Part shown: positions 3,191 to 13,546 of the stretch, in pieces
Layout of the letters: each line of letters starts with the position of its first letter
Numbering within the stretch: position 1 is the first letter of the stretch
Origin: Mollicutes bacterium Phil14
GTDB lineage: Bacteria > Bacillota_I > Bacilli_A > ML615J-28 > CAG-698
Assembly: GCA_001940985.1 (NCBI GenBank)
Contig: MSHB01000026.1
Span: 2,215-66,214 of the forward strand
Direction of reading: 5' to 3'
Length of the DNA: 64,000 bases
The notes under the pieces: model-generated
What the model was told of the DNA's origin: nothing
Databases searched by the model: none
What the model saw: only the letters and a program-made list of their open reading frames with translations
Program-made: the position numbers and the translations under genes

Positions 3191-3324
3191 TCGAGCTTAG
3201 TCTCTTCAAATTGAAGCTTATATTCTACTAGATAGTTATATATAATTTCATCATATACTAACCATATTGACATTATAATCATATAAGCTACTATTGCAAA
3301 CATCAAATAAAAATACCAAGGCAT
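3130..3324 (-). CDS. small membrane protein
   Basis: Track ORF with a hydrophobic N-terminus (MPWYFYLMFAIVAYMIIMSIWLV). Its C-terminal 20 codons overlap the structured element, so the true end is uncertain. Confidence 0.4.
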   Translation of the reverse strand: MPWYFYLMFAIVAYMIIMSIWLVYDEIIYNYLVEYKLQFEETKLEVQEIVGHPGLAAKLAHCGF

Positions 3325-3344
3325 ATTAAGCGTCTATTAACATT

Positions 3345-3482
3345 TTAACAATCGTATATCGAAAATCCATAATATCTAAACAGTCTAACTTCTTCTAATG
3401 TATACTTATCCTCTATACAGTTAGCTATATCTAATAAGATGTTAGGTTGTTCATTATAATTAATTAAATTAATCTTAACCAT
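3345..3482 (-). CDS. hypothetical small protein (45 aa)
   Basis: ATG 3482-3480 to TAA 3347-3345: MVKINLINYNEQPNILLDIANCIEDKYTLEEVRLFRYYGFSIYDC. Below the track cutoff. Confidence 0.3.
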   Translation of the reverse strand: MVKINLINYNEQPNILLDIANCIEDKYTLEEVRLFRYYGFSIYDC

Positions 3483-3601
3483 AGTAAGTCATTAGTAATT
3501 CTAAAGTAATAGGACTAACATCATCAGTTTGACTTAATATATAATCTATATCATTCATAATCCGAGTAATAAGTAAGACAAGTAGTATTAGTATTAATCA
3601 G

Positions 3602-3655
3602 TATATATCGATATATATCAGTTATACTGTATTAAACTGTATTGACTGATACAGT
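3602..3655. promoter_or_regulatory. palindrome plus ACTGTA repeats in the divergent control region (operator or origin candidate)
   Basis: Perfect 16-bp palindrome TATATATCGATATATA at 3602-3617. ACTGTATT occurs at 3626-3633 and 3636-3643 (10-bp phasing). Inverted ACTGATACAGT at 3645-3655. A very AT-rich tract follows at 3700-3770. Confidence 0.4.
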
Positions 3656-3954
3656 AACGAATAGAATTAAACTTTGTTTCTCTTTACTATAGTTTGTTAA
3701 CACTTTTTATAAAAATATATGTTTATTTAATAGCTAAAATAAAAAATTATATATTAAAAAATTGAAAGAAGAATCGTGAGCGTGTGGATCTGTACTCAAA
3801 TACGGCCCCCCTACTAAATGTCGACCGAAATACCCCGGTAGGTTGTTTCATCTTAAATTAATTATCATGAGCGATTTAATTACTCCTGAATGGCTGTTAA
3901 GTGATATCGATGATGAATACATCGATTCATGGTTCAATGTGTAAGTAGTCAATT

Positions 3955-4161
3955 ATGGCTACTTACTTTACTTTGTTTGTTCAACTTAAATCATATTATA
4001 TGAAAGTACTATTATCTATCTTGTTTATTATCATATCAGCAGCTAGTCTAGTACTAGCAGTAGCTACTCATAACAGGTATGCTGCAGCAGTCTATATGAC
4101 TCTATTTGCATTCAGTGCATTATGTGTATACGGTATTAATGAATCGGTTAGTAAGCAATAA
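3955..4161 (+). CDS. small membrane protein
   Basis: 68-aa track ORF with two hydrophobic helices. Confidence 0.5.
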   Translation: MATYFTLFVQLKSYYMKVLLSILFIIISAASLVLAVATHNRYAAAVYMTLFAFSALCVYGINESVSKQ

Positions 4162-4355
4162 GCTTGCTAATCGTTTCCATTACTGCTGCCACAAATACAG
4201 TTCTACTGCTAAATAAAGAGTAAGAGTAGTTCTACTTCTGTTAGTAGGTAATAAATGAAGTTTTAGGATAGATGCTGAATCGAGTCCTATTACCCTACTC
4301 TTACTCATCTTTATATTTATTTATGATTTATTAACAGTAAAAAATATTTACAATT

Positions 4356-4607
4356 ATGAAAGAAGAACAACCTACTCAAAACTCTATTCCAGCTGATGTA
4401 CAATTTCCTGTAGATTATCATGAAAACATCAGTATGTTAATAGATATGTTTTTCAAACTAGATGAAAAGGTTTCATCTGGAGAGATGGATATATCTATAT
4501 CTATGGAAGTAATAGCAGAATTACGTAGTCAATTAGACTATGTACAGTGTCTTTATAAGAAAAGAGGTGCTTATATTAATAGGCAATTACCATTAAAAGA
4601 TGATTAA
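4356..4607 (+). CDS. hypothetical protein
   Basis: 83-aa track ORF. TAA stop. Confidence 0.5.
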   Translation: MKEEQPTQNSIPADVQFPVDYHENISMLIDMFFKLDEKVSSGEMDISISMEVIAELRSQLDYVQCLYKKRGAYINRQLPLKDD

Positions 4608-4609
4608 TT

Positions 4610-4699
4610 ATGGGAGACTATGTATTAAAACAGAATGTTGCAATGATATTAATATACTTTGTTATATTTGTAATTGCATATGCTAGTACTAATCGTTAA
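4610..4699 (+). CDS. tiny membrane peptide (29 aa)
   Basis: MGDYVLKQNVAMILIYFVIFVIAYASTNR, starting 2 nt after the upstream stop. Confidence 0.3.
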   Translation: MGDYVLKQNVAMILIYFVIFVIAYASTNR

Positions 4700-5313
4700 T
4701 GAATAGTAAATAATCTTTACAGATTATGGGGCCAGAAAGGCCTCAGCCAACGCCACAAATACAGCCCTTCTTCAAAATAATGCGATATAAAGAAATTTAT
4801 ATTGTATTATATATTGAGTGTGAGATGTGAAGATTTTATGATATCACTTCTTTTCCATCAATACGTTATCATTACTGTCACTGGCGATTTACGTATTTAC
4901 TCAATATATAGCTAAATTTATCCATCTGAGGTTGAGAGTTTGCGAAGTACTAGCACATCAAAGATGGATAAATATTTATATGAACAAACATTTATAAGTT
5001 AAACCAAACTTCGCAATTCGGTAAAATGCTATTCCGAAGATTACAGAGTGCAAACTGTAATACAATGCAAAATACAGATAATAGGAATTAACGGCTTAGC
5101 GATTAATTATTTGCACCGTATTATCTGCGTATGTAAAATGAATGAGTGCCAACTCCAAGGATAGGTAGAACTAATAGAACTAAGCACTATTAGAAAGGCT
5201 TCTATCTATTCTTGTAATATTAATGTAGCCAGCTTTATGCTGAGAGTCCAAAGCCTCTATAAATACAGATAGATATTATCATCACGTTTACTAATCATCT
5301 AAATTTAGAAAAT
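4700..5313 (+). ncRNA. structured RNA or long structured leader (unclassified)
   Basis: No ORF; stops in all frames. Nested stems: 4917-4927/4962-4972 (11 bp), and 5160-5170/5200-5210 (11 bp with 2 G:U pairs valid only on the plus strand) enclosing 5171-5177/5187-5193. Also a CAGATAATA/TATTATCTG stem. Confidence 0.4.
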
Positions 5314-5961
5314 ATGGCAAAATTCGAATTATGCAACCCAGAAATTAAAAAAGTTGCAAAAGGAAACAACGCAGGTAAAGAGTATTTAACTGGTACATTA
5401 TTAAACACATTGGCAATATTAGACAGACCAACAACTCATGTAGAGTTCAATGACCGTCTAGTAGAAATGTACAAACCATTTATTTCAGCAGCAAAAGGTG
5501 GAACTGCTGAAACAGACCAAGAATTACCAGAAAGATTACGATACATAACTGCACACAGAGTAAATTGGCAACCACCTAAAGAGTCAATACCATTCAACCG
5601 CATCTATCTTACAGATGTAACAGATGGTACAGGAAAAACTCATAAAGCCGGAGATACAATTTGCGACCGTAACGGTAACCCAAGGTTATACGAGTCAATA
5701 GTAGTATTCTGTAAGTACTTCAGAGACCCTGATTTTCCAGACAAAGTATCCTATTATGCAGGAGATGAGCCAGACCAAAAAGGTCAAGCTTATTTCGGTT
5801 CATTCTGTATCAAAGCTACCTTACCCAAAACAACAGTTAGCGATGAAGATGAAGGAGCTTACAAAGCACCAACATCAACAACTTCAACTAAAGAAGAGAA
5901 ACCAGCTCTTCCAGACGGTTGGAGATACAATGAACAAGGAATACCAGAACCTATCGCTTAA
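5314..5961 (+). CDS. hypothetical protein
   Basis: 215-aa track ORF with visibly higher GC than its neighbours and a Ser/Thr/Glu-rich C-terminus. No motif recognised. Confidence 0.7.
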   Translation: MAKFELCNPEIKKVAKGNNAGKEYLTGTLLNTLAILDRPTTHVEFNDRLVEMYKPFISAAKGGTAETDQELPERLRYITAHRVNWQPPKESIPFNRIYLTDVTDGTGKTHKAGDTICDRNGNPRLYESIVVFCKYFRDPDFPDKVSYYAGDEPDQKGQAYFGSFCIKATLPKTTVSDEDEGAYKAPTSTTSTKEEKPALPDGWRYNEQGIPEPIA

Positions 5962-6033
5962 TTAATAAGTCCTAGCATTAGCTAGGATTTATTATGTATT
6001 AACTCAAATATCAGATAAATAAGACTGAAAATT

Positions 6034-6258
6034 ATGGAAAAAGAAACTACTCAAACAATAACCAACAACAATGAAATTTGTCAAGGATTATTCGATAATT
6101 TGGATAGTCAAATACTATTATTAAAAGAACTAGATGGATTTTTAAAATCAAGAAAACTACAATCCGGTGAAGCAGCAATATGTATAACACATGCGATAAT
6201 GCATACTGCCGAAACTTTAGCTAATTATTATGATGTAACATATCCTAAGAACATCTAA
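6034..6258 (+). CDS. hypothetical protein
   Basis: 74-aa track ORF. Confidence 0.5.
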   Translation: MEKETTQTITNNNEICQGLFDNLDSQILLLKELDGFLKSRKLQSGEAAICITHAIMHTAETLANYYDVTYPKNI

Positions 6259-6260
6259 TC

Positions 6261-6434
6261 ATGAACAACGTACTAGCATGGATACTTGTAATGATTTCTT
6301 TATCATTAGGTATAGTATTCGCATCTCAAATTAACTGGACATATATGCATGGACTAGCTTCATTATGTTTCTGGTTTATATGCGTATCATTACTTCTTTA
6401 TATCAAAAAACATTCAAAAGATGAAGACGAATAA
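6261..6434 (+). CDS. small membrane protein (57 aa)
   Basis: MNNVLAWILVMISLSLGIVFASQINWTYMHGLASLCFWFICVSLLLYIKKHSKDEDE. Overlaps the next start. Confidence 0.45.
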   Translation: MNNVLAWILVMISLSLGIVFASQINWTYMHGLASLCFWFICVSLLLYIKKHSKDEDE

Positions 6435-6618
6435 AGAATTAATACAGAAAATAAGTTATTGGTGTTTATTAGTATTCTTATCATTAGCTGAATCATCAAT
6501 ACTAATAATGATATACAAAGATACTATAGAGTTAAAACCATCTATGGTATTAGCAGATAGTATATTTGGAGCAGTAATAGCGGGATTAACTTACTTCATA
6601 GTAACAAGAGATGAATAA
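6421..6618 (+). CDS. small membrane protein
   Basis: 65-aa track ORF with two hydrophobic segments. Confidence 0.5.
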   Translation: MKTNKELIQKISYWCLLVFLSLAESSILIMIYKDTIELKPSMVLADSIFGAVIAGLTYFIVTRDE

Positions 6619-6781
6619 TAAATATATCAGATTAAAGTTACTTATCACAGCGATAATGACTATAATATTTATTATTATGGCAATAATAATATTACATAAA
6701 GAACCTTTACCAAATATATTATCTATTATTGCAATAATAGTATCTATTCACAATTTAATAATATTTATGATAACTACTTAA
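6611..6781 (+). CDS. small membrane protein (56 aa)
   Basis: MNNKYIRLKLLITAIMTIIFIIMAIIILHKEPLPNILSIIAIIVSIHNLIIFMITT. Overlaps the upstream stop. Confidence 0.45.
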   Translation: MNNKYIRLKLLITAIMTIIFIIMAIIILHKEPLPNILSIIAIIVSIHNLIIFMITT

Positions 6782-6897
6782 ACCATATCAAAATGGCAAG
6801 AACAAAAACAAAAATAAAAGCAATTAAGATTGCAATTTGCAACTGTAACAAGTTGTATTTTTTAAATTTAAAGTAAAGAACTATTAAATTTAACAAT

Positions 6898-7119
6898 ATG
6901 TTAGAAAAATTACCAAAACAATTACATCAGTATTTAAGACTGACTTATTCTCTTTATAAACAAGATTGTTTAACAATAGATACTGTAACCTCGACTATAG
7001 ATGATATAGTTGTTCTTAACTATGATGTTGATAACTATTGTGAAACAACTAGTGTTATACAAAAAGAATTAGAAGAGAACTATAACCGAGCTACTGATTG
7101 GCGAATCATAGAAGAATAG
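6898..7119 (+). CDS. hypothetical protein
   Basis: 73-aa track ORF. It ends at TAG, so the real C-terminus is uncertain. Confidence 0.5.
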   Translation: MLEKLPKQLHQYLRLTYSLYKQDCLTIDTVTSTIDDIVVLNYDVDNYCETTSVIQKELEENYNRATDWRIIEE

Positions 7120-7317
7120 TTATAGGATTTTTGTTAGCTTATTCCTATAACAGTTCATTTACTGTTAATGGTATTCATGGTATCAATGTGTGTTAGAGTT
7201 TTGTTTTGTCTCATTTTACTAATTGTGCAAAAGAACGACTTTCTGAAAGCTAACATAATACAACTGTATGTGAATATCGTTGTATTAAACTTTTAATAAC
7301 TTTAATTCATAATCAAT

Positions 7318-7911
7318 ATGGCATTAAAAAAAGAAAAGAAACAAGAATTAGAAGAAAAACGTATTAGTCTTTCATTAGAAAAAGAACAATACGAAAAGTC
7401 TAGAAATATAGACTTAATACCAATTCTCAAAAAGATAAAACCTGGAACTATCTTATATTCTCCTATAATTGGTAGATGTAAAGTTACAGATATCAATAAT
7501 GATAATATCTTAATAACTAGTATTAATAATACTAGAGTATTTATTGTACTATTTAAAACAGGTCATCTAAAAGAAATAGCTATTAAATGCGGAGGTGAGC
7601 CACTTTTAAGGCCTAATGAAAATCCAGAAGTAACTTGGGAACAATTACTAGTGAAAAACAAAAGAGATTTAAATCTATTAACTCCAGTTATGTTTAAACA
7701 ACATTTTATTAATGAAGTAACTAATTTTGGTTATTATGCTGGACAAAATGCAGTCTATATAAGAATGCCAAATACTAATGAACACTCACTAACTAAACAT
7801 GTCTGTGATATAATAGTTCCTACTTGTAAATTTAACTTTAAAAATATGTCTTTTAATGCAGAAGACAATTATGGAAAAGCAGATCTTGGAATTGGAGAAT
7901 GTATTATGTAA
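7318..7911 (+). CDS. hypothetical protein
   Basis: 197-aa track ORF preceded by the conserved CATAATCAATATG leader. Confidence 0.65.
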   Translation: MALKKEKKQELEEKRISLSLEKEQYEKSRNIDLIPILKKIKPGTILYSPIIGRCKVTDINNDNILITSINNTRVFIVLFKTGHLKEIAIKCGGEPLLRPNENPEVTWEQLLVKNKRDLNLLTPVMFKQHFINEVTNFGYYAGQNAVYIRMPNTNEHSLTKHVCDIIVPTCKFNFKNMSFNAEDNYGKADLGIGECIM

Positions 7912-7931
7912 ATATGGGAGATTATTCTCCC

Positions 7932-8489
7932 ACTCTTCAGAAAATGACAAACATGTGGGGCGTAAGTAATAAAATAGTATTGTATAATGATAAACTAGCA
8001 ATAGTCATTATACTAAATTGCTAGTATTTTATTATGATCGTGCGGACGTAAAAATCATGTATACTAATAAGGATAATGTGACAGTTATCCTGCTACAGTA
8101 TTAAAACTTTGTGAGAGTCAAAATTGAATCCTTATCATAGAACGTAGAAGGAACAACGTCTTATTAATATATTAATACAGCGGTATTAGTATAGAAATAA
8201 GTTTACTTATATCTATTCATATAAGTAGTAAAATACAAATGTAAAATCCATAGAATAGTATGGCGTCATTAGTTAGTATTCCGATTAGAAAAGACTAGTG
8301 TAGAGAAGTATATGTAACATATCACATTAAACACATGTGCTTAATATGAATATCAAGGCATACCCAGTTCTATGCTAGTCTTACTTTTATTTGTATATCG
8401 TCTGCCAGACTTTATATAGGTGGAGACTTCGGTCAACCCAGGAGAGTACTATGAGAGAGAGCATAGTACTCTTTCCTTTTATTTGTTTT
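7932..8489 (+). ncRNA. candidate discrete structured RNA ending at a strong terminator
   Basis: ORF-free with stops in all frames. Hairpins at 7994-8002/8017-8025, and GAC-TTCG-GTC near 8425. Closed by the 8443-8489 terminator. Confidence 0.35.
8443..8489 (+). terminator. rho-independent terminator
   Basis: 11-bp stem AGAGTACTATG/CATAGTACTCT with loop AGAGAGAG, followed by TTCCTTTTATTTGTTTT. Confidence 0.8.
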
Positions 8490-8596
8490 ATGTTGTGAAG
8501 AACAGTAGCAATGGTTAAAAACAAAGTGACTGAGTATCAATATGATACTAATTAGATGTACTATTAATTTAAATCCTTAGGTACAAAGGTAAATCT

Positions 8597-8770
8597 ATGC
8601 AAGTAAAACAAACAATCAATGGTGTGGAATATATCATCCACATAAACAAAAATTATGGTATATGTGATTTATCACATCGGAGAGAGTTATTAACTAAGTA
8701 TATCGGGCAAGATTTCCGATTAGTATCTGAGAAAGTATTTAAAGATATGAGTACTTCTAATGTTAATTAA
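8597..8770 (+). CDS. hypothetical small protein (57 aa)
   Basis: MQVKQTINGVEYIIHINKNYGICDLSHRRELLTKYIGQDFRLVSEKVFKDMSTSNVN. Ends 2 nt before the next ATG. Confidence 0.4.
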   Translation: MQVKQTINGVEYIIHINKNYGICDLSHRRELLTKYIGQDFRLVSEKVFKDMSTSNVN

Positions 8771-8772
8771 GT

Positions 8773-9336
8773 ATGGAAAAATCAGAGTACAAAAAATTAG
8801 TAGAAGAAGTTATAGCATTTGCAAAGGAAAATGCAGGAAAACAATGTATTATAACAGATAGAAATCTAAGAGAATCAGGTACAATCTGTGGTTATAATGA
8901 ATCTATATCTTCATCAATAGATGAACCTATGCTAATAGTAGCTGTATATGCACCTATAGGATGGAATGTAATAGAATCTGATGATATATTACTATACAAA
9001 GTAAAACAAGATACTAGTATAGTACATGATATGAAAAAGTTTTCTTATTTATATGTACCATTAGATAAAATTAGATTAGTAGAACATAAGAGTAAATTAC
9101 CTGAAGTAGCTAGATACCGCAATCTTACTTTAGGCAGATTAACTCAAATTAAAGCTGCTATTGATTACATTCTTACTAGTTCTCCTGATAAAGTAAGAAG
9201 TACTATGGATGAAGAGAAGGAAGACTTATTACGTATTAAATATGCTCTACAAGATGTAGTTAGTATGTGGAGATACAATACTAAAGTATTATTAGAGAAA
9301 ATTAAAAAGGATCAAGAAGATGGCAAGTGGAAGTAG
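8773..9336 (+). CDS. hypothetical protein
   Basis: 187-aa track ORF. Terminal codon is TAG. Confidence 0.6.
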   Translation: MEKSEYKKLVEEVIAFAKENAGKQCIITDRNLRESGTICGYNESISSSIDEPMLIVAVYAPIGWNVIESDDILLYKVKQDTSIVHDMKKFSYLYVPLDKIRLVEHKSKLPEVARYRNLTLGRLTQIKAAIDYILTSSPDKVRSTMDEEKEDLLRIKYALQDVVSMWRYNTKVLLEKIKKDQEDGKWK

Positions 9337-9619
9337 AAAAGCAATTCAAGATTTACTACCATACGCATGGGAAGTAATCTTACGCAAGCATCATTTACTA
9401 TCACACTTTTGTGAAAGTCTTTATCAAACGATGCCTAAAGGATGGAGAAATAAATATTATTACAAAAATATTTTAACTCGTGCTAAGTGTTGGTACAAGC
9501 TACCATTTACTACTATTATCTACAGAATACCTAATCTTATGGATCCTATAAAGTACCCTGAGAAACTTTGGTTAGAAATCAATGATGAAATTAATCAACT
9601 TTTAAATAGAGTAAAATGA
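9320..9619 (+). CDS. hypothetical protein
   Basis: 99-aa track ORF. TGA stop overlaps the next ATG. Confidence 0.5.
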   Translation: MASGSRKAIQDLLPYAWEVILRKHHLLSHFCESLYQTMPKGWRNKYYYKNILTRAKCWYKLPFTTIIYRIPNLMDPIKYPEKLWLEINDEINQLLNRVK

Positions 9620-9867
9620 AACTAGTAGCATCTTTCTTTTATGGTATACTAACAACACTAGTTATACTAATAACAACTATAAGATACACACATTATAGTT
9701 TTATAGATGATTGGACAGCTTCTCAGTTAAAATACGGAGATTATAGTATATATTGGTATTGGATAGTACTAGTTATATATACTATGTGGTTAGTATTTAC
9801 TATTGAATCTATACTTAGTATCTTTAAACATAATAAAGATGAAAATATGTCGAAAACTATGGAATAG
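9616..9867 (+). CDS. small membrane protein
   Basis: 83-aa track ORF with two hydrophobic helices. Terminal TAG, with TAA 6 codons later. Confidence 0.5.
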   Translation: MKLVASFFYGILTTLVILITTIRYTHYSFIDDWTASQLKYGDYSIYWYWIVLVIYTMWLVFTIESILSIFKHNKDENMSKTME

Positions 9868-10006
9868 TTATCTAAGACAAATAGATAAAATCTTTGATTT
9901 TGCAGAGAATAATCCAAAAACAGTATTCGTTATATTCATTATTATATGTATAACTATACTAGTTATTAACATTGAGATTTTAGTACCATATTTATTAAAC
10001 AATTAA
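9803..10006 (+). CDS. small membrane protein (uncertain)
   Basis: 67-aa track ORF that overlaps the previous gene by 65 nt. Confidence 0.3.
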   Translation: MNLYLVSLNIIKMKICRKLWNSYLRQIDKIFDFAENNPKTVFVIFIIICITILVINIEILVPYLLNN

Positions 10007-10020
10007 AACATTTATCAAAA

Positions 10021-10425
10021 ATGAGAAATTATTTTGCATTATGCATTGCAGGTATTATTGCTATGTTTATTATAGCAGTTACCTTTGAGAGTTGTAAGCC
10101 TAAAACAGGCAATAATTCACAAGAACAAAACGATTTACCTACTTTCGAAACGGATACTGTAGAAACAGCTCCGTTAACTGTCGCAGAAGTTTTACAGCGG
10201 CGAGATGATATGAGACTATGTGAATACGAAGATTCTATTTGGTTAACAATGCCAGATGAAATTATTGTACAAATCTGCGTAAATAAAGGCACAGATTTAT
10301 CGCAATATGAAATCGTAGAAACATATTTACAGAATAAAGAATTTTATGATGGATTCGTTAAAGGCTCAAGATACGTAAAAGAGCATAAAGAATCTGATAT
10401 TCCTATAACAGATAGTATAAAATAA
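10021..10425 (+). CDS. putative lipoprotein
   Basis: 134 aa. The N-terminal hydrophobic signal ends ...AVTFESC, which is lipobox-like. Confidence 0.55.
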   Translation: MRNYFALCIAGIIAMFIIAVTFESCKPKTGNNSQEQNDLPTFETDTVETAPLTVAEVLQRRDDMRLCEYEDSIWLTMPDEIIVQICVNKGTDLSQYEIVETYLQNKEFYDGFVKGSRYVKEHKESDIPITDSIK

Positions 10426-10430
10426 CGCCT

Positions 10431-10673
10431 ATGAAACAAAAATTAGCATCCCTATTATGTGCTATATTTGGACATTCATGGGAAACATTTGATACCTTGA
10501 ACGCTAGTAGATCTATTGCAGATCGTACTTATTGTTCTAGATGTGGGATAAAATATCACACTCATATCTTTCGTCGTATAAATAAAGAGAATCAAAAAGA
10601 AGAATTTCATCGTGATCCTCAAGTTAGGTATAGAAACCTAACTGAATATTTTAAGAAAACTTCAAACAAATAA
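10431..10673 (+). CDS. small Cys/His protein
   Basis: 80-aa track ORF with C..H...C..C spacing. Confidence 0.5.
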   Translation: MKQKLASLLCAIFGHSWETFDTLNASRSIADRTYCSRCGIKYHTHIFRRINKENQKEEFHRDPQVRYRNLTEYFKKTSNK

Positions 10674-10677
10674 TAAT

Positions 10678-11088
10678 ATGAAAGTAGTAGTTTTTTGTGT
10701 ACCAAACCACATTTCTGAATCTGATTTAGCAAATGCTATGGAAGAAATGTTATGCAACTTAGATTGTTGCGTAGGATTTCATGTATTAACTGATAATGAT
10801 TCTGTTCCTAAGATTAAAGGAGTAAAATCAAAAGGTAGAACAGCTCTAGAAGAGTTATTCAAAATATGTGGAACTCCAAACACTTATTCTTCAAATAAAG
10901 AATTTCTTGCTAAAGTAAGAGAAGTTCTTCTTAATAGAGGAGGAACAATTAACTTAGAATTAGCTAATATTATAGCTGATCCTAGGTCTTTTACTAAGAG
11001 AGATCAACAATTCTTAAACAATAATAAAGGTAATATGATTATTGATTATTGTAGAGCCTTTATTGCATTATTTGAAGATTTAGTATGA
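10678..11088 (+). CDS. hypothetical protein
   Basis: 136-aa track ORF. Confidence 0.6.
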   Translation: MKVVVFCVPNHISESDLANAMEEMLCNLDCCVGFHVLTDNDSVPKIKGVKSKGRTALEELFKICGTPNTYSSNKEFLAKVREVLLNRGGTINLELANIIADPRSFTKRDQQFLNNNKGNMIIDYCRAFIALFEDLV

Positions 11089-11444
11089 TAAGTAGAAAAC
11101 AACGAGCATTAGCTAAAAGAAATCAAATCCTATTAAAAGAAAGGTTAAATCGTAATCCTTTAAATGGAAAATTACAACTTACCAAAATTAAAATAGGAAT
11201 AAATCCTAGTTCTGAACTAGAGATGCGTAAAGTACTCTATCAAGTAAGACAAAAAGAAATTAGAGAAGCAGAGAAGCTTAGAAAGCTTCAAGCTGAAACT
11301 AAAAGATTTTTAGGACTTGATATATATTATGATAATTTATTAACTTACGATAATTCTCCAAAAGATGACGGATTAAGTTGTAAAGAACGTCGTTTAATGA
11401 AGAAATACGGAGTTAAACGATATCATAACATAAGTATAGCTTAA
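11085..11444 (+). CDS. basic hypothetical protein
   Basis: 119-aa track ORF. Its ATG overlaps the upstream TGA. Confidence 0.55.
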   Translation: MISRKQRALAKRNQILLKERLNRNPLNGKLQLTKIKIGINPSSELEMRKVLYQVRQKEIREAEKLRKLQAETKRFLGLDIYYDNLLTYDNSPKDDGLSCKERRLMKKYGVKRYHNISIA

Positions 11445-11510
11445 ACTTAAAACAAAATAAGCTTTATTCATAAAAATCAATTTTATTAACAATTTAAATT
11501 ATCAAAAATT

Positions 11511-11978
11511 ATGAAACAAATTGCATTAAGAATGGCAGCAGTAGCTCCTTACATGAGATTTATCACAGCAGACGATTCTCTCAAAAATGTAGACGGTTTT
11601 TCAAATCCTAATTCGGAAATCATGGATGAAATCCGAAAAGAAGAAGAAGAACGTGAACGTGAAGAGAAAAAGAATGCTGCTAAAATCCAGTTACAAATCG
11701 ATACTTTCGAACAAGAGCTAGCCGCTATTGAACTTCGTCAAGCTCGTGCAAAAGAGGAAGCTAAAACAAAAGCTTTAAAAGCTCGTACGGACGAAAACGA
11801 AAAATATATGGCCGGCGGAAAAGATACCGAAGACCATAAGAAAGCAATTGCAGCAATTGAGGAAGAATATGCTAATAACGTTCGGAAAGCAGATACCGAA
11901 TTCAACAAAGCATATCAGAATCTCAAGGCTAAGAATCCTATGGGGTATTCCCGTAGCTCTCGTAGTTGCCGTTGGTAA
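11511..11978 (+). CDS. coiled-coil hypothetical protein
   Basis: 155-aa track ORF, E/K/A-rich and visibly less AT-rich. Confidence 0.6.
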   Translation: MKQIALRMAAVAPYMRFITADDSLKNVDGFSNPNSEIMDEIRKEEEEREREEKKNAAKIQLQIDTFEQELAAIELRQARAKEEAKTKALKARTDENEKYMAGGKDTEDHKKAIAAIEEEYANNVRKADTEFNKAYQNLKAKNPMGYSRSSRSCRW

Positions 11979-11998
11979 AATTACGAACTAACTATTTA

Positions 11999-12298
11999 CT
12001 TATCAGTACCTTGTGTCACGATAAGAAAGAATATATTCTAATCATGCATACGGGGATTTTGCAATTACCTATGGAGCTATTCACAGAATATAAACTTTAA
12101 TACTCAGTATATACTTCGGTGTATACTGAGTAGATAAATAGAAAACGTGCCACTGATCATGTGCCTAAAGATCTAAAGGTATTCCTCAGTGTTAGGAATA
12201 TGCTTCTAACTATAAGTACCTTGTGTCAACATAGTTAGACTAGTCTTATGACGATAAACAGAAATCTATCAAGAGTTATATATGAGTACCTCGTGTCT
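11999..12298 (+). repeat. three copies of AGTACCTYGTGTC, two displayed in hairpin loops
   Basis: Copies at 12005-12018, 12215-12228 and 12285-12298. The first two sit in loops of the stems CTTATC/GATAAG (11999-12025) and CTAACTAT/ATAGTTAG (12206-12238). Confidence 0.6.
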
Positions 12299-12492
12299 AA
12301 AGTTCAATTGAGTCCCTTCAAGGTGAGCACTTGCTTTACATATATAAATCAAAAAACAATGTAGTAATTATAAGAAGAGAGTGTCTAGTACCTATAGTAT
12401 TATTATTTACTGTGATGGTAAATAATAGACTATACTCAACTTATAAATACATATTATAAAGTATAGAGTTCTTGATTGAGCTCTATACTACT

Positions 12493-12651
12493 ATGAACAG
12501 AGGAAGACATAAAAGCTTGAAAAAGAAGATTAAGTATATGTCAAATGAACAGATGCTTAAAATGTTAGAAGAAATGAACAATATTAAAACTGATTGTAAA
12601 GAATTTATTGAGCAATGTATTGTTTACTCTAACTATAGTATTAAAAAGTAA
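12493..12651 (+). CDS. hypothetical small protein (52 aa)
   Basis: MNRGRHKSLKKKIKYMSNEQMLKMLEEMNNIKTDCKEFIEQCIVYSNYSIKK. The first 20 nt are identical to the start of 13563..13832. Confidence 0.4.
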   Translation: MNRGRHKSLKKKIKYMSNEQMLKMLEEMNNIKTDCKEFIEQCIVYSNYSIKK

Positions 12652-12957
12652 AACGACTGTTAGGTCTATGAATCACTGTTTGGACACGGGTTTGATTCCC
12701 GTCACCTCCACGAATATGTTTCGATTAAGAGAGAGAGTCTACCGTTTAATGCATTTCATACGACTCAGTGAGATTTCTCACTTAAACTGAATAGAAATGC
12801 ATTATTTTAATCGGGGGTGAATGAGTTTGACAGGCAGAATGTGAAGTAGAATAGGTCGCATGCAGATAACTGGCAACACAAGTTATGTAACGGATTATAC
12901 TCGTATTGCAGCGTAATATGAGAATCCAACGGCTAAGCTAATGTCGTAAAAAGCTGG
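12652..12957 (+). ncRNA. ssrA: circularly permuted (two-piece) tmRNA-like gene
   Basis: The upstream piece ends GGAC-ACGGG-TTTGATT-CCCGT-CACCTCC-A (12682-12710). The downstream piece starts GGGGGTGAATGAGTTTGACAGG (12813-). The two strands form a 7-bp acceptor stem with G3:U70 and discriminator A. Tag-like frame at 12872-12916: GNTSYVTDYTRIAA-TAA. Confidence 0.7.
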
Positions 12958-13030
12958 AGTACTATAGTTGTAATTGGTAAAATATAACACTGATAAAGTT
13001 AAGTTACAGGTTCAAATCCTGTTAGTACTA
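12958..13030 (+). tRNA. tRNA-Ile (anticodon GAU)
   Basis: Acceptor AGTACTA/TAGTACT. T arm ACAGG-TTCAAAT-CCTGT. Anticodon loop CTGATAA, with an A:A mismatch closing the stem. Hand fold, 73 nt. Confidence 0.7.
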
Positions 13031-13060
13031 CTATAAAATTAATCAATAATTTAAAACACT

Positions 13061-13546
13061 ATGGCGGAAGATATAGAAGATAAAACACTTGAAGATCCTG
13101 CATTTTTATCCTTTTTTAATTCAATCATGAGTATTATATGTAATACAAAAGGTAAAGAAAAAGCAATAAGAGTTAAAGAGAAAATAAATTGCTATTTACG
13201 GTCATTACAAGTAGATGGACAAATTAAAGGATTAAAACCTTTAACGATTAAAAAGTATGATGTAATTCGTACCATAATAGGAAAAATGAATCATTATTCA
13301 ATAGTATATAAAGTAGATAATAAAAACAAACTACTCTGGGTAGTTCCAATTACTACATCTTCTACTTACTTATTTAAATTATGGGAAGTTAAGAGTAGAA
13401 TATATACTGGATATTATGGTAATTGTATTTATTTCGTACCTATGAATGGAGATTATAATTTCTGTAATATATTTGACAATAAAATTGATTTTAATAAATA
13501 TATGAAAGAACTAAAAACTTATTACAAAAAAACTTTATATTTATAA
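13061..13546 (+). CDS. hypothetical protein
   Basis: 161-aa track ORF. Confidence 0.6.
   Translation: MAEDIEDKTLEDPAFLSFFNSIMSIICNTKGKEKAIRVKEKINCYLRSLQVDGQIKGLKPLTIKKYDVIRTIIGKMNHYSIVYKVDNKNKLLWVVPITTSSTYLFKLWEVKSRIYTGYYGNCIYFVPMNGDYNFCNIFDNKIDFNKYMKELKTYYKKTLYL

Follow-up and report, generated by a model that had tools for sequence, protein, structure and literature searches.

A type-P1 twister ribozyme (5215–5278), preceded on its 5’ side by a small hairpin and a nested hairpin, lies toward the 3’ end of the non-coding stretch at positions 4700–5313 of the window. The window is the whole 64,000-nucleotide piece of DNA analyzed here, and all coordinates refer to it. Judged from the sequence, these three elements probably form an operon-junction processing module within a rightward gene block (probability approximately 0.72). 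Within the stretch, comparative backing is confined to 5144–5278, and relatives were found only for about 150 nucleotides (5128–5278). The remaining 440 nucleotides are not demonstrably special.

The phage locus and its non-coding stretch

The source contig (C26 of a 1.69-Mb metagenome-assembled genome, MAG) looks like a phage. It has approximately 30% G+C, carries a ThyX gene and numerous small ORFs, and encodes three tRNAs, a permuted tmRNA, and a hatchet ribozyme. A 555-amino-acid protein of the contig matches only crAss-like phages (cr114_1, cr125_1, and others), at less than 30% identity. The element hosting the twister locus is a crAss-like gut phage. The rightward gene block begins near position 3955, and the non-coding stretch lies inside it, between a 29-codon ORF and the gene that starts at 5314. 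The ATG of the 29-codon ORF (4610) is 3 nucleotides past the stop of the preceding ORF (4356–4607). The features of the locus are as follows.

4610–4699 (+), 29-codon hydrophobic small ORF, the last of the upstream gene block, marking the 5’ edge of the non-coding stretch
4700–5143 (+), lineage-specific non-coding spacer with local hairpins; it folds, and has no homolog and no Rfam match
4710–4727, 4728–4744, 5009–5039, and 5040–5061 (+), spacer hairpins
4777–4810 (+), spacer hairpin of 15 bp with a GAAA loop
4807–4820/4898–4911 (+), spacer stem enclosing two hairpins
4826–4896 (+), 71-nucleotide segment; close strains (contigs of runs X3 and X4) have a diverged sequence of equal length in its place
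4916–4927/4962–4973 and 5075–5083/5119–5127 (+), spacer stems
5144–5155 (+), small hairpin GAGU-GCCA-ACUC, with a stem that covaries with related phages and a conserved loop GCC
5156–5214 (+), nested hairpin with a 15-bp outer stem, a 7-bp inner stem, and the bulge AAAGGC at 5194–5199
5215–5278 (+), type-P1 twister ribozyme (RF03160 match, our own model R1, covariation, and free-energy fold)
5215–5220/5273–5278 (+), twister P1
5224–5227/5264–5267 (+), twister P2
5230–5233/5239–5242 (+), twister P3
5243–5245/5256–5258 (+), twister P4
5248–5250 with 5270–5272 (+), twister pseudoknot of 3 bp between L4 and the 3’ strand of L1, with a C5249·A5271 mismatch
5253–5254 with 5228–5229 (+), twister pseudoknot of 2 bp between L4 and the GC that follows P2
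Between U5221 and A5222 (+), predicted cleavage site, 92 nucleotides before the 5314 start codon
5298–5309 (+), 12-nucleotide perfect palindrome UCUAAAUUUAGA, just 5’ of the 5314 start codon
5314–5961 (+), downstream G+C-richer gene for a 215-amino-acid protein, family not assigned
7933–8060 (+), hatchet ribozyme that scores 95.3 bits against a cut-off of 51 and lies 2.7 kb downstream of the twister

The stretch was described in the first-pass annotation as lacking ORFs and containing at least five well-formed helices, and both descriptions hold. No ORF of 40 or more amino acids is present under translation table 11, with TGA read as W, or with TAG read as Q, and each of the six frames contains at least four TAA codons. 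A 34-codon ATG frame (MGPERPQPTPQIQPFF...) at 4726–4830 on the + strand, which runs through both the GGCC hairpin and the 15-bp one, may be a tiny gene. All of the named helices were found at, or within a few bases of, their reported positions. A stem reported as 11 bp (4917–4927/4962–4972) is a perfect 12-nucleotide inverted repeat (4916–4927/4962–4973), and the GGCC-AGAAA-GGCC hairpin reads in full GGGGCC-AGAAA-GGCCUC at 4728–4744. The reported two-level structure has an outer stem of 15 bp (5156–5170/5200–5214) that encloses the inner stem (5171–5177/5187–5193), and its two plus-strand G:U pairs are G5160·U5210 and G5165·U5205.

Several helices are clearly favored on the + strand because of their G·U pairs. 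The nested hairpin has a folding energy of −24.3 kcal/mol on the + strand and −18.1 kcal/mol on the − strand, and the 4777–4810 hairpin has −13.3 and −3.3 kcal/mol, respectively. This strand bias fits an RNA transcribed from the + strand.

The downstream gene, noted earlier as visibly GC-richer, has a G+C content of 0.39–0.40 compared with about 0.30. Its 215-amino-acid product falls in no Pfam or PHROG family. Relatives with approximately 50% identity were found solely in uncultured contigs (Logan/ENA data); neither the protein nor the alignment, used as queries, retrieved a related locus from viral contigs, and none was found in genome contigs. The AlphaFold model of the protein is poor (pLDDT 57), and a Foldseek search with it returned nothing at an E value of 0.001 or better. 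The first 80 residues give weak, non-significant matches to OB-fold ssDNA-binding proteins. A protein atlas search returned only unnamed viral clusters, at 0.83.

The twister ribozyme and the hairpins on its 5’ side

An Rfam/Infernal scan and a covariation analysis had been proposed for the whole region. The scan returned a sub-threshold twister-P1 at the 3’ end and nothing else in 4700–5215, where no RAGATH, riboswitch, or other family matched at E values up to 10 in a short search; the best hits there were chance-level miRNA and snoRNA models far under their gathering scores. The twister-P1 family (RF03160) matches at 5217–5276 over the full-length model (positions 1–68, cmscan) with 54.7 bits and an E value of about 8e-12 to 1e-11. 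The gathering cut-off is 67.2 bits, and relatives score 52–57 bits. The score falls below threshold because of a compensated change in the 3-bp pseudoknot, which is CCA:UGG in the phage subfamily and CCC:GGG in the Rfam consensus.

The window copy scores 78.7 bits on R1, a covariance model derived from 24 related phage sequences. The same model found no second twister in the window (filters off over 3300–13300). A free-energy fold of 5215–5278 reproduces the same four stems, and the copy has the complete set of core motifs (UAA, GCC, GUCC-AAGCC, and UAAA). There are two departures from the twister core. One is a C-to-A change in L4 that is compensated by a U in L1 throughout the subfamily, and the other is the uncompensated A5271.

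The pairing of the twister fold was compared with a control in which the 3’ partners were slid by one to three columns. Across the 24 distinct sequences, with the pseudoknots included, 90% of cells pair in the twister fold compared with 25–42% in the control, and the covariation score is 0.44 compared with 0.04–0.12. Twelve pairs across P1, P2, and P3 are altered on both sides. P4 and both pseudoknots are invariant (CCA:UGG and GC:GC in all), a constancy that weighs little because P4 and the L4 strands of the pseudoknots were already specified in the search pattern. Locus L099 has an additional compensated change, C-G to U-A, in the closing pair of P3. The Rfam match, the covariation, and the R1 score identify 5215–5278 as a twister. 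From the twister consensus, cleavage is predicted between U5221 and A5222.

In a blastn search of 50,697 phage records, the twister core is the only part of the region with relatives. These are two RefSeq crAss-like phages of the genus Burzaovirus, with 91% identity and an intergenic position in both. An exact 18-mer of the core occurs in 45 IMG/VR loci, and a looser pattern was found in three contigs of GTDB genomes from three other lineages. Two MAG contigs, labeled Erysipelotrichaceae and Firmicutes, each carry two same-strand twisters of the subfamily. These are about 135 nucleotides apart in L098 (3990–4051 and 4186–4258) and about 750 nucleotides apart in L096 (3022–3081 and 3832–3900).

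The outer stem of the nested hairpin runs to 5214 and abuts P1, whose first position is 5215. The same arrangement can be seen in a related group of IMG/VR and metagenome phages (loci L007, L014, L026, L032, L033, L035, L038, L041–L043, L046, L049, and others), in which P1 and P2 have the same sequence as in the window. Before the ribozyme, these relatives have a 4–5-bp hairpin with a GCC loop and a long hairpin containing a second hairpin and the 6-nucleotide bulge AAAGGC. The stem of their small hairpin is GGGU/ACCC, CAGGU/ACCUG, or CAAGG/CCUUG, and the small hairpin is missing from two metagenome members of the group. Between the window and the group, 9 of the 14 compared pairs of the outer stem are changed on both sides and 3 on one side. 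In the inner stem 5 of 7 pairs are changed on both sides, and the bulge AAAGGC is identical. The nested hairpin is conserved with the related group by structure and not by sequence. A search of IMG/VR and metagenomes for the bulge-plus-P1 pattern returned only the group already known and chance matches.

An nhmmer search with the 550-nucleotide alignment of the group matches the window only at 5128–5278. The proposed covariation check yields covarying relatives for the twister and its adjoining hairpins, and no relatives of 4700–5127 were found in the collections searched. In the related phages (L014:4737-5287:- and relatives, alignment A2; L099:1500-2074), the corresponding place is taken by a different element, conserved and ORF-free, of about 490 nucleotides up to the cleavage site. 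This element has a sharp 5’ boundary at TTAAAAAACTCAAT and matches no Rfam family. Several of its helices show compensated changes, a GCACC/GGUGU stem encloses a hypervariable interior, and the element always terminates in the hairpin plus the twister.

A stable hairpin next to P1 is found well beyond this group. The 55 nucleotides before P1 were folded in every distinct member of the subfamily, and a hairpin was counted if it had −8 kcal/mol or better and ended 0–3 nucleotides before P1. Of the 33 distinct sequences, 25 have such a hairpin, as do at least 13 of the 17 independent lineages, where lineages were counted as independent when their hairpins are unrelated in sequence. Among 1500 55-mers drawn at random from these loci, 18% qualify by the same measure (binomial p about 3e-7 for 13 of 17). 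The predicted 5’ cleavage product was also folded free in 18 lineage representatives, with the window and its related group counted separately. All but two of these end in a terminal hairpin with a tail of 0–12 nucleotides.

A classical intrinsic terminator was considered for the nested hairpin and finds no support in the window or in most lineages, which lack a U tract. A terminator scan was empty at 5156–5225, and after the stem in the window no 8 nucleotides contain more than 4 U. Hairpins with the U tract of a classical terminator occur in few lineages, and a minority look terminator-like.

In all of the 57 distinct contexts examined, the ribozyme lies between genes and is co-oriented with its neighbors, and no same-strand ORF overlaps it. 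The next ATG ORF begins at a median of 51 nucleotides downstream of the ribozyme; in the window, 35 nucleotides separate the ribozyme from the 5314 start codon. The gap between the previous ORF and the hairpin or ribozyme ranges from 11 to 1534 nucleotides among lineages. The genes downstream of the hairpin-plus-twister module are unrelated between lineages.

Proposed mechanism and alternatives

From the twister, its abutting hairpin, and their position before a gene, we infer the following course of events. RNA polymerase would read through from the upstream small genes into the hairpins, and then the twister would fold and cut between U5221 and A5222. The upstream RNA would end in the nested hairpin plus a 7-nucleotide tail with a 2’,3’-cyclic phosphate. 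The 5314 message would start with a 5’-OH and the folded ribozyme body, 92 nucleotides before its start codon. Given such a cut, the two halves of the transcript can have separate stabilities. The nested hairpin probably shields the new 3’ end, keeps upstream sequence from disturbing the folding of the ribozyme, or both. Under this reading, 4700–5143 would be a non-coding spacer, or a 3’ trailer, that is specific to the lineage and has ordinary local hairpins, and the hatchet at 7933–8060 may set the other end of the 5314 message. The processing of polycistronic transcripts by bacterial twisters and hammerheads has been suggested, but not established (PMC6765202, section 13).

An unlikely alternative is that approximately 520 nucleotides (about 4700–5221) are an independent stable ncRNA, whose 3’ end would be made by the twister and which would terminate in the nested hairpin. 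In that case the ribozyme would act for this RNA and not for the mRNAs. The spacer is similar in size to the element of the related group, in which the same hairpin and twister invariably form the 3’ end. Both also contain a long stem enclosing a hypervariable interior, and the hairpins at 4777–4810 and 4916–4973 are plus-strand-specific. In the window, this interior is the 71-nucleotide segment at 4826–4896, which fills the inside of the 4807–4820/4898–4911 stem and is replaced in close strains whose flanks differ by only about 1%.

The spacer itself argues against an independent ncRNA. Between 4700–5127 and the element of the related group, nhmmer found no homology. No homolog of 4700–5143 was found in the phage, IMG/VR, metagenome, or GTDB collections, and no Rfam family matches it. 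The length of the space before the hairpin also varies among other lineages, from 11 to 1534 nucleotides. Separately, blastn comparisons of the region with the window and with the whole MAG yielded nothing beyond chance similarity, which indicates that it belongs to no repeat family and has no antisense target.

Folding energy does not set the spacer apart either. Compared with shuffled sequences, 4700–5140 has a fold z-score of −3.6 on the + strand and −2.9 on the − strand, and 4700–5216 has −5.0 and −3.4, respectively. Thirty-five + strand windows of 440 nucleotides from the same phage have a mean z-score of −2.1 (sd 1.7), and 17% of them reach −3.6. The spacer is only about 1 SD better than the phage average, and by this measure the 5’ three quarters of the stretch are unremarkable. 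The strongest + strand z-scores are found between 4 and 33 kb. The + strand is structure-rich throughout, so fold z-scores in this phage need a local background.

No promoter was identified in the region, which also counts against a separate transcript. The 13-mer GCCACAAATACAG, present at 4188 and 4752, was considered as a promoter lead and rejected, as 8% of shuffles equal its match count at two or fewer mismatches. By our own estimate, an exact 13-mer repeat within 600 nucleotides is unremarkable in an AT-rich window.

A speculative extension of the same idea, and an unlikely one, is that the P1-abutting hairpin and the twister form a dedicated 3’-end device in the window phage and the related group. 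The device would release a hairpin-capped structured RNA of about 0.5 kb, whose hypervariable interior (4826–4896 here) would be a specificity element. If true, phage twisters would gain a definite function, and phage ncRNAs matured by a ribozyme would form a new class. The biological role of bacterial and phage twisters is still open (PMC6765202).

It is quite improbable that the twister is a decaying, inactive relic in non-functional intergenic filler. Such a reading would draw on the sub-threshold Rfam score and on position 5271, where an A leaves a C5249·A5271 mismatch in the middle of the 3-bp pseudoknot. Single-nucleotide differences between close strains are also about as frequent in the non-coding stretch (about 1.1%) as in upstream coding DNA (1.25%). 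Against this, all other conserved positions and all stems of the window copy are intact, the abutting hairpin is maintained, and the same A variant occurs independently in locus L046. The contigs of runs X1 and X2 otherwise match the window exactly, and that of X1, which spans 5271, also has A. The close strains X3 and X4 (run contigs) have G at 5271, which restores the pair. In a large assay of natural twisters (PMC11662667), this pseudoknot (PK2 in that study) is sensitive at its middle positions, where the mean fraction cleaved drops to about 0.6 from 0.76, and C·A is among the better tolerated mismatches at that pseudoknot position. The A5271 copy is expected to have reduced, and not abolished, activity.

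The differences between close strains also respect the predicted structures. Six SNPs are present in 4700–5313, of which five lie in predicted structure, and none breaks a pair. The three in stems keep or improve pairing: 5023 A>G keeps its pair as G·U, 5160 G>A in the sister strains changes a G·U to A-U in the outer stem of the nested hairpin, and 5271 is described above. Two more are in loops (4944 G>A in the spacer, and 5148 G>A of the sister strains in the loop of the small hairpin). The sixth, at 4700, is just past the upstream stop codon.

The weakest alternative, a cis-acting structured leader (a riboswitch or attenuator) of the whole 600 nucleotides that controls transcription or translation of 5314, as had been suggested at first, is very improbable: it lies directly upstream of 5314 and is co-oriented with it, the G+C content of the gene differs, and the palindrome at 5298–5309 is next to the start codon, but a self-cleaving ribozyme stands between leader and gene, no known regulatory RNA family matches, the 5’ 440 nucleotides are not conserved, and in other phages the genes that follow the same hairpin-plus-twister module are unrelated. 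The last 64 nucleotides of the conserved structure are the twister, which would sever the upstream 520 nucleotides from the gene. What stands of the first interpretation is a non-coding sequence with RNA helices favored on the + strand; it does not stand as one 600-nucleotide unit controlling 5314.

With the processing module as the preferred reading, the locus offers a clean case in which a gene block is followed by a stable hairpin, the twister, 35 nucleotides, and the next gene. Within this phage twister subfamily, which the Rfam threshold misses, most independent lineages have a hairpin adjoining P1. This suggests a role in which polycistronic phage transcripts would be cut into separately stabilized pieces, and in which the hairpin would form a protected 3’ end after the cut. 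In terms of annotation, many of the “structured intergenic regions” of crAss-like phages may contain sub-threshold twisters.

Comparison with known systems

Self-cleaving ribozymes (twister, hammerhead, and hatchet) are known to cluster near each other and near phage genes (PMC6765202). The window twister and hatchet fit this pattern, as they are on the same strand and the pairing recurs in related phages; the same spacing between the two is seen in L014, L033, L046, and L099. The locus differs in the intervening genes, as none of the proteins encoded between twister and hatchet are homologous between the window and the related phages.

The RAGATH families of Rfam are candidate structured RNAs, conserved and hairpin-rich, that adjoin twisters or hatchets in phage DNA. 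In three of the related phages, a sub-threshold RAGATH-9 match (57 bits, cut-off 75) lies about 0.8 kb after the hatchet (L014:987-1121:-, L033:1066-1200:-, and L099:5694-5828:+). The window differs in having no RAGATH match in 4700–5215 and no RAGATH-9 match in 7880–9400.

With the twister family RF03160, the window copy shares the stem order P1-P2-P3-P4, both pseudoknots, and covarying stems. It also shares the UAA cleavage-site loop, the GCC after P2, the L4 loop GUCCnAAGCC, and the UAAA before the 3’ strand of P2. It differs in the CCA:UGG pseudoknot, which is found throughout the phage subfamily, and in the A in place of G at 5271, which is a feature of the window copy. A further difference is the stable hairpin that abuts the 5’ side of P1 in most phage lineages. 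A hairpin in this position is not known to be part of the published twister consensus. The window twister is a further member of the twister class, with a recurrent hairpin abutting P1.
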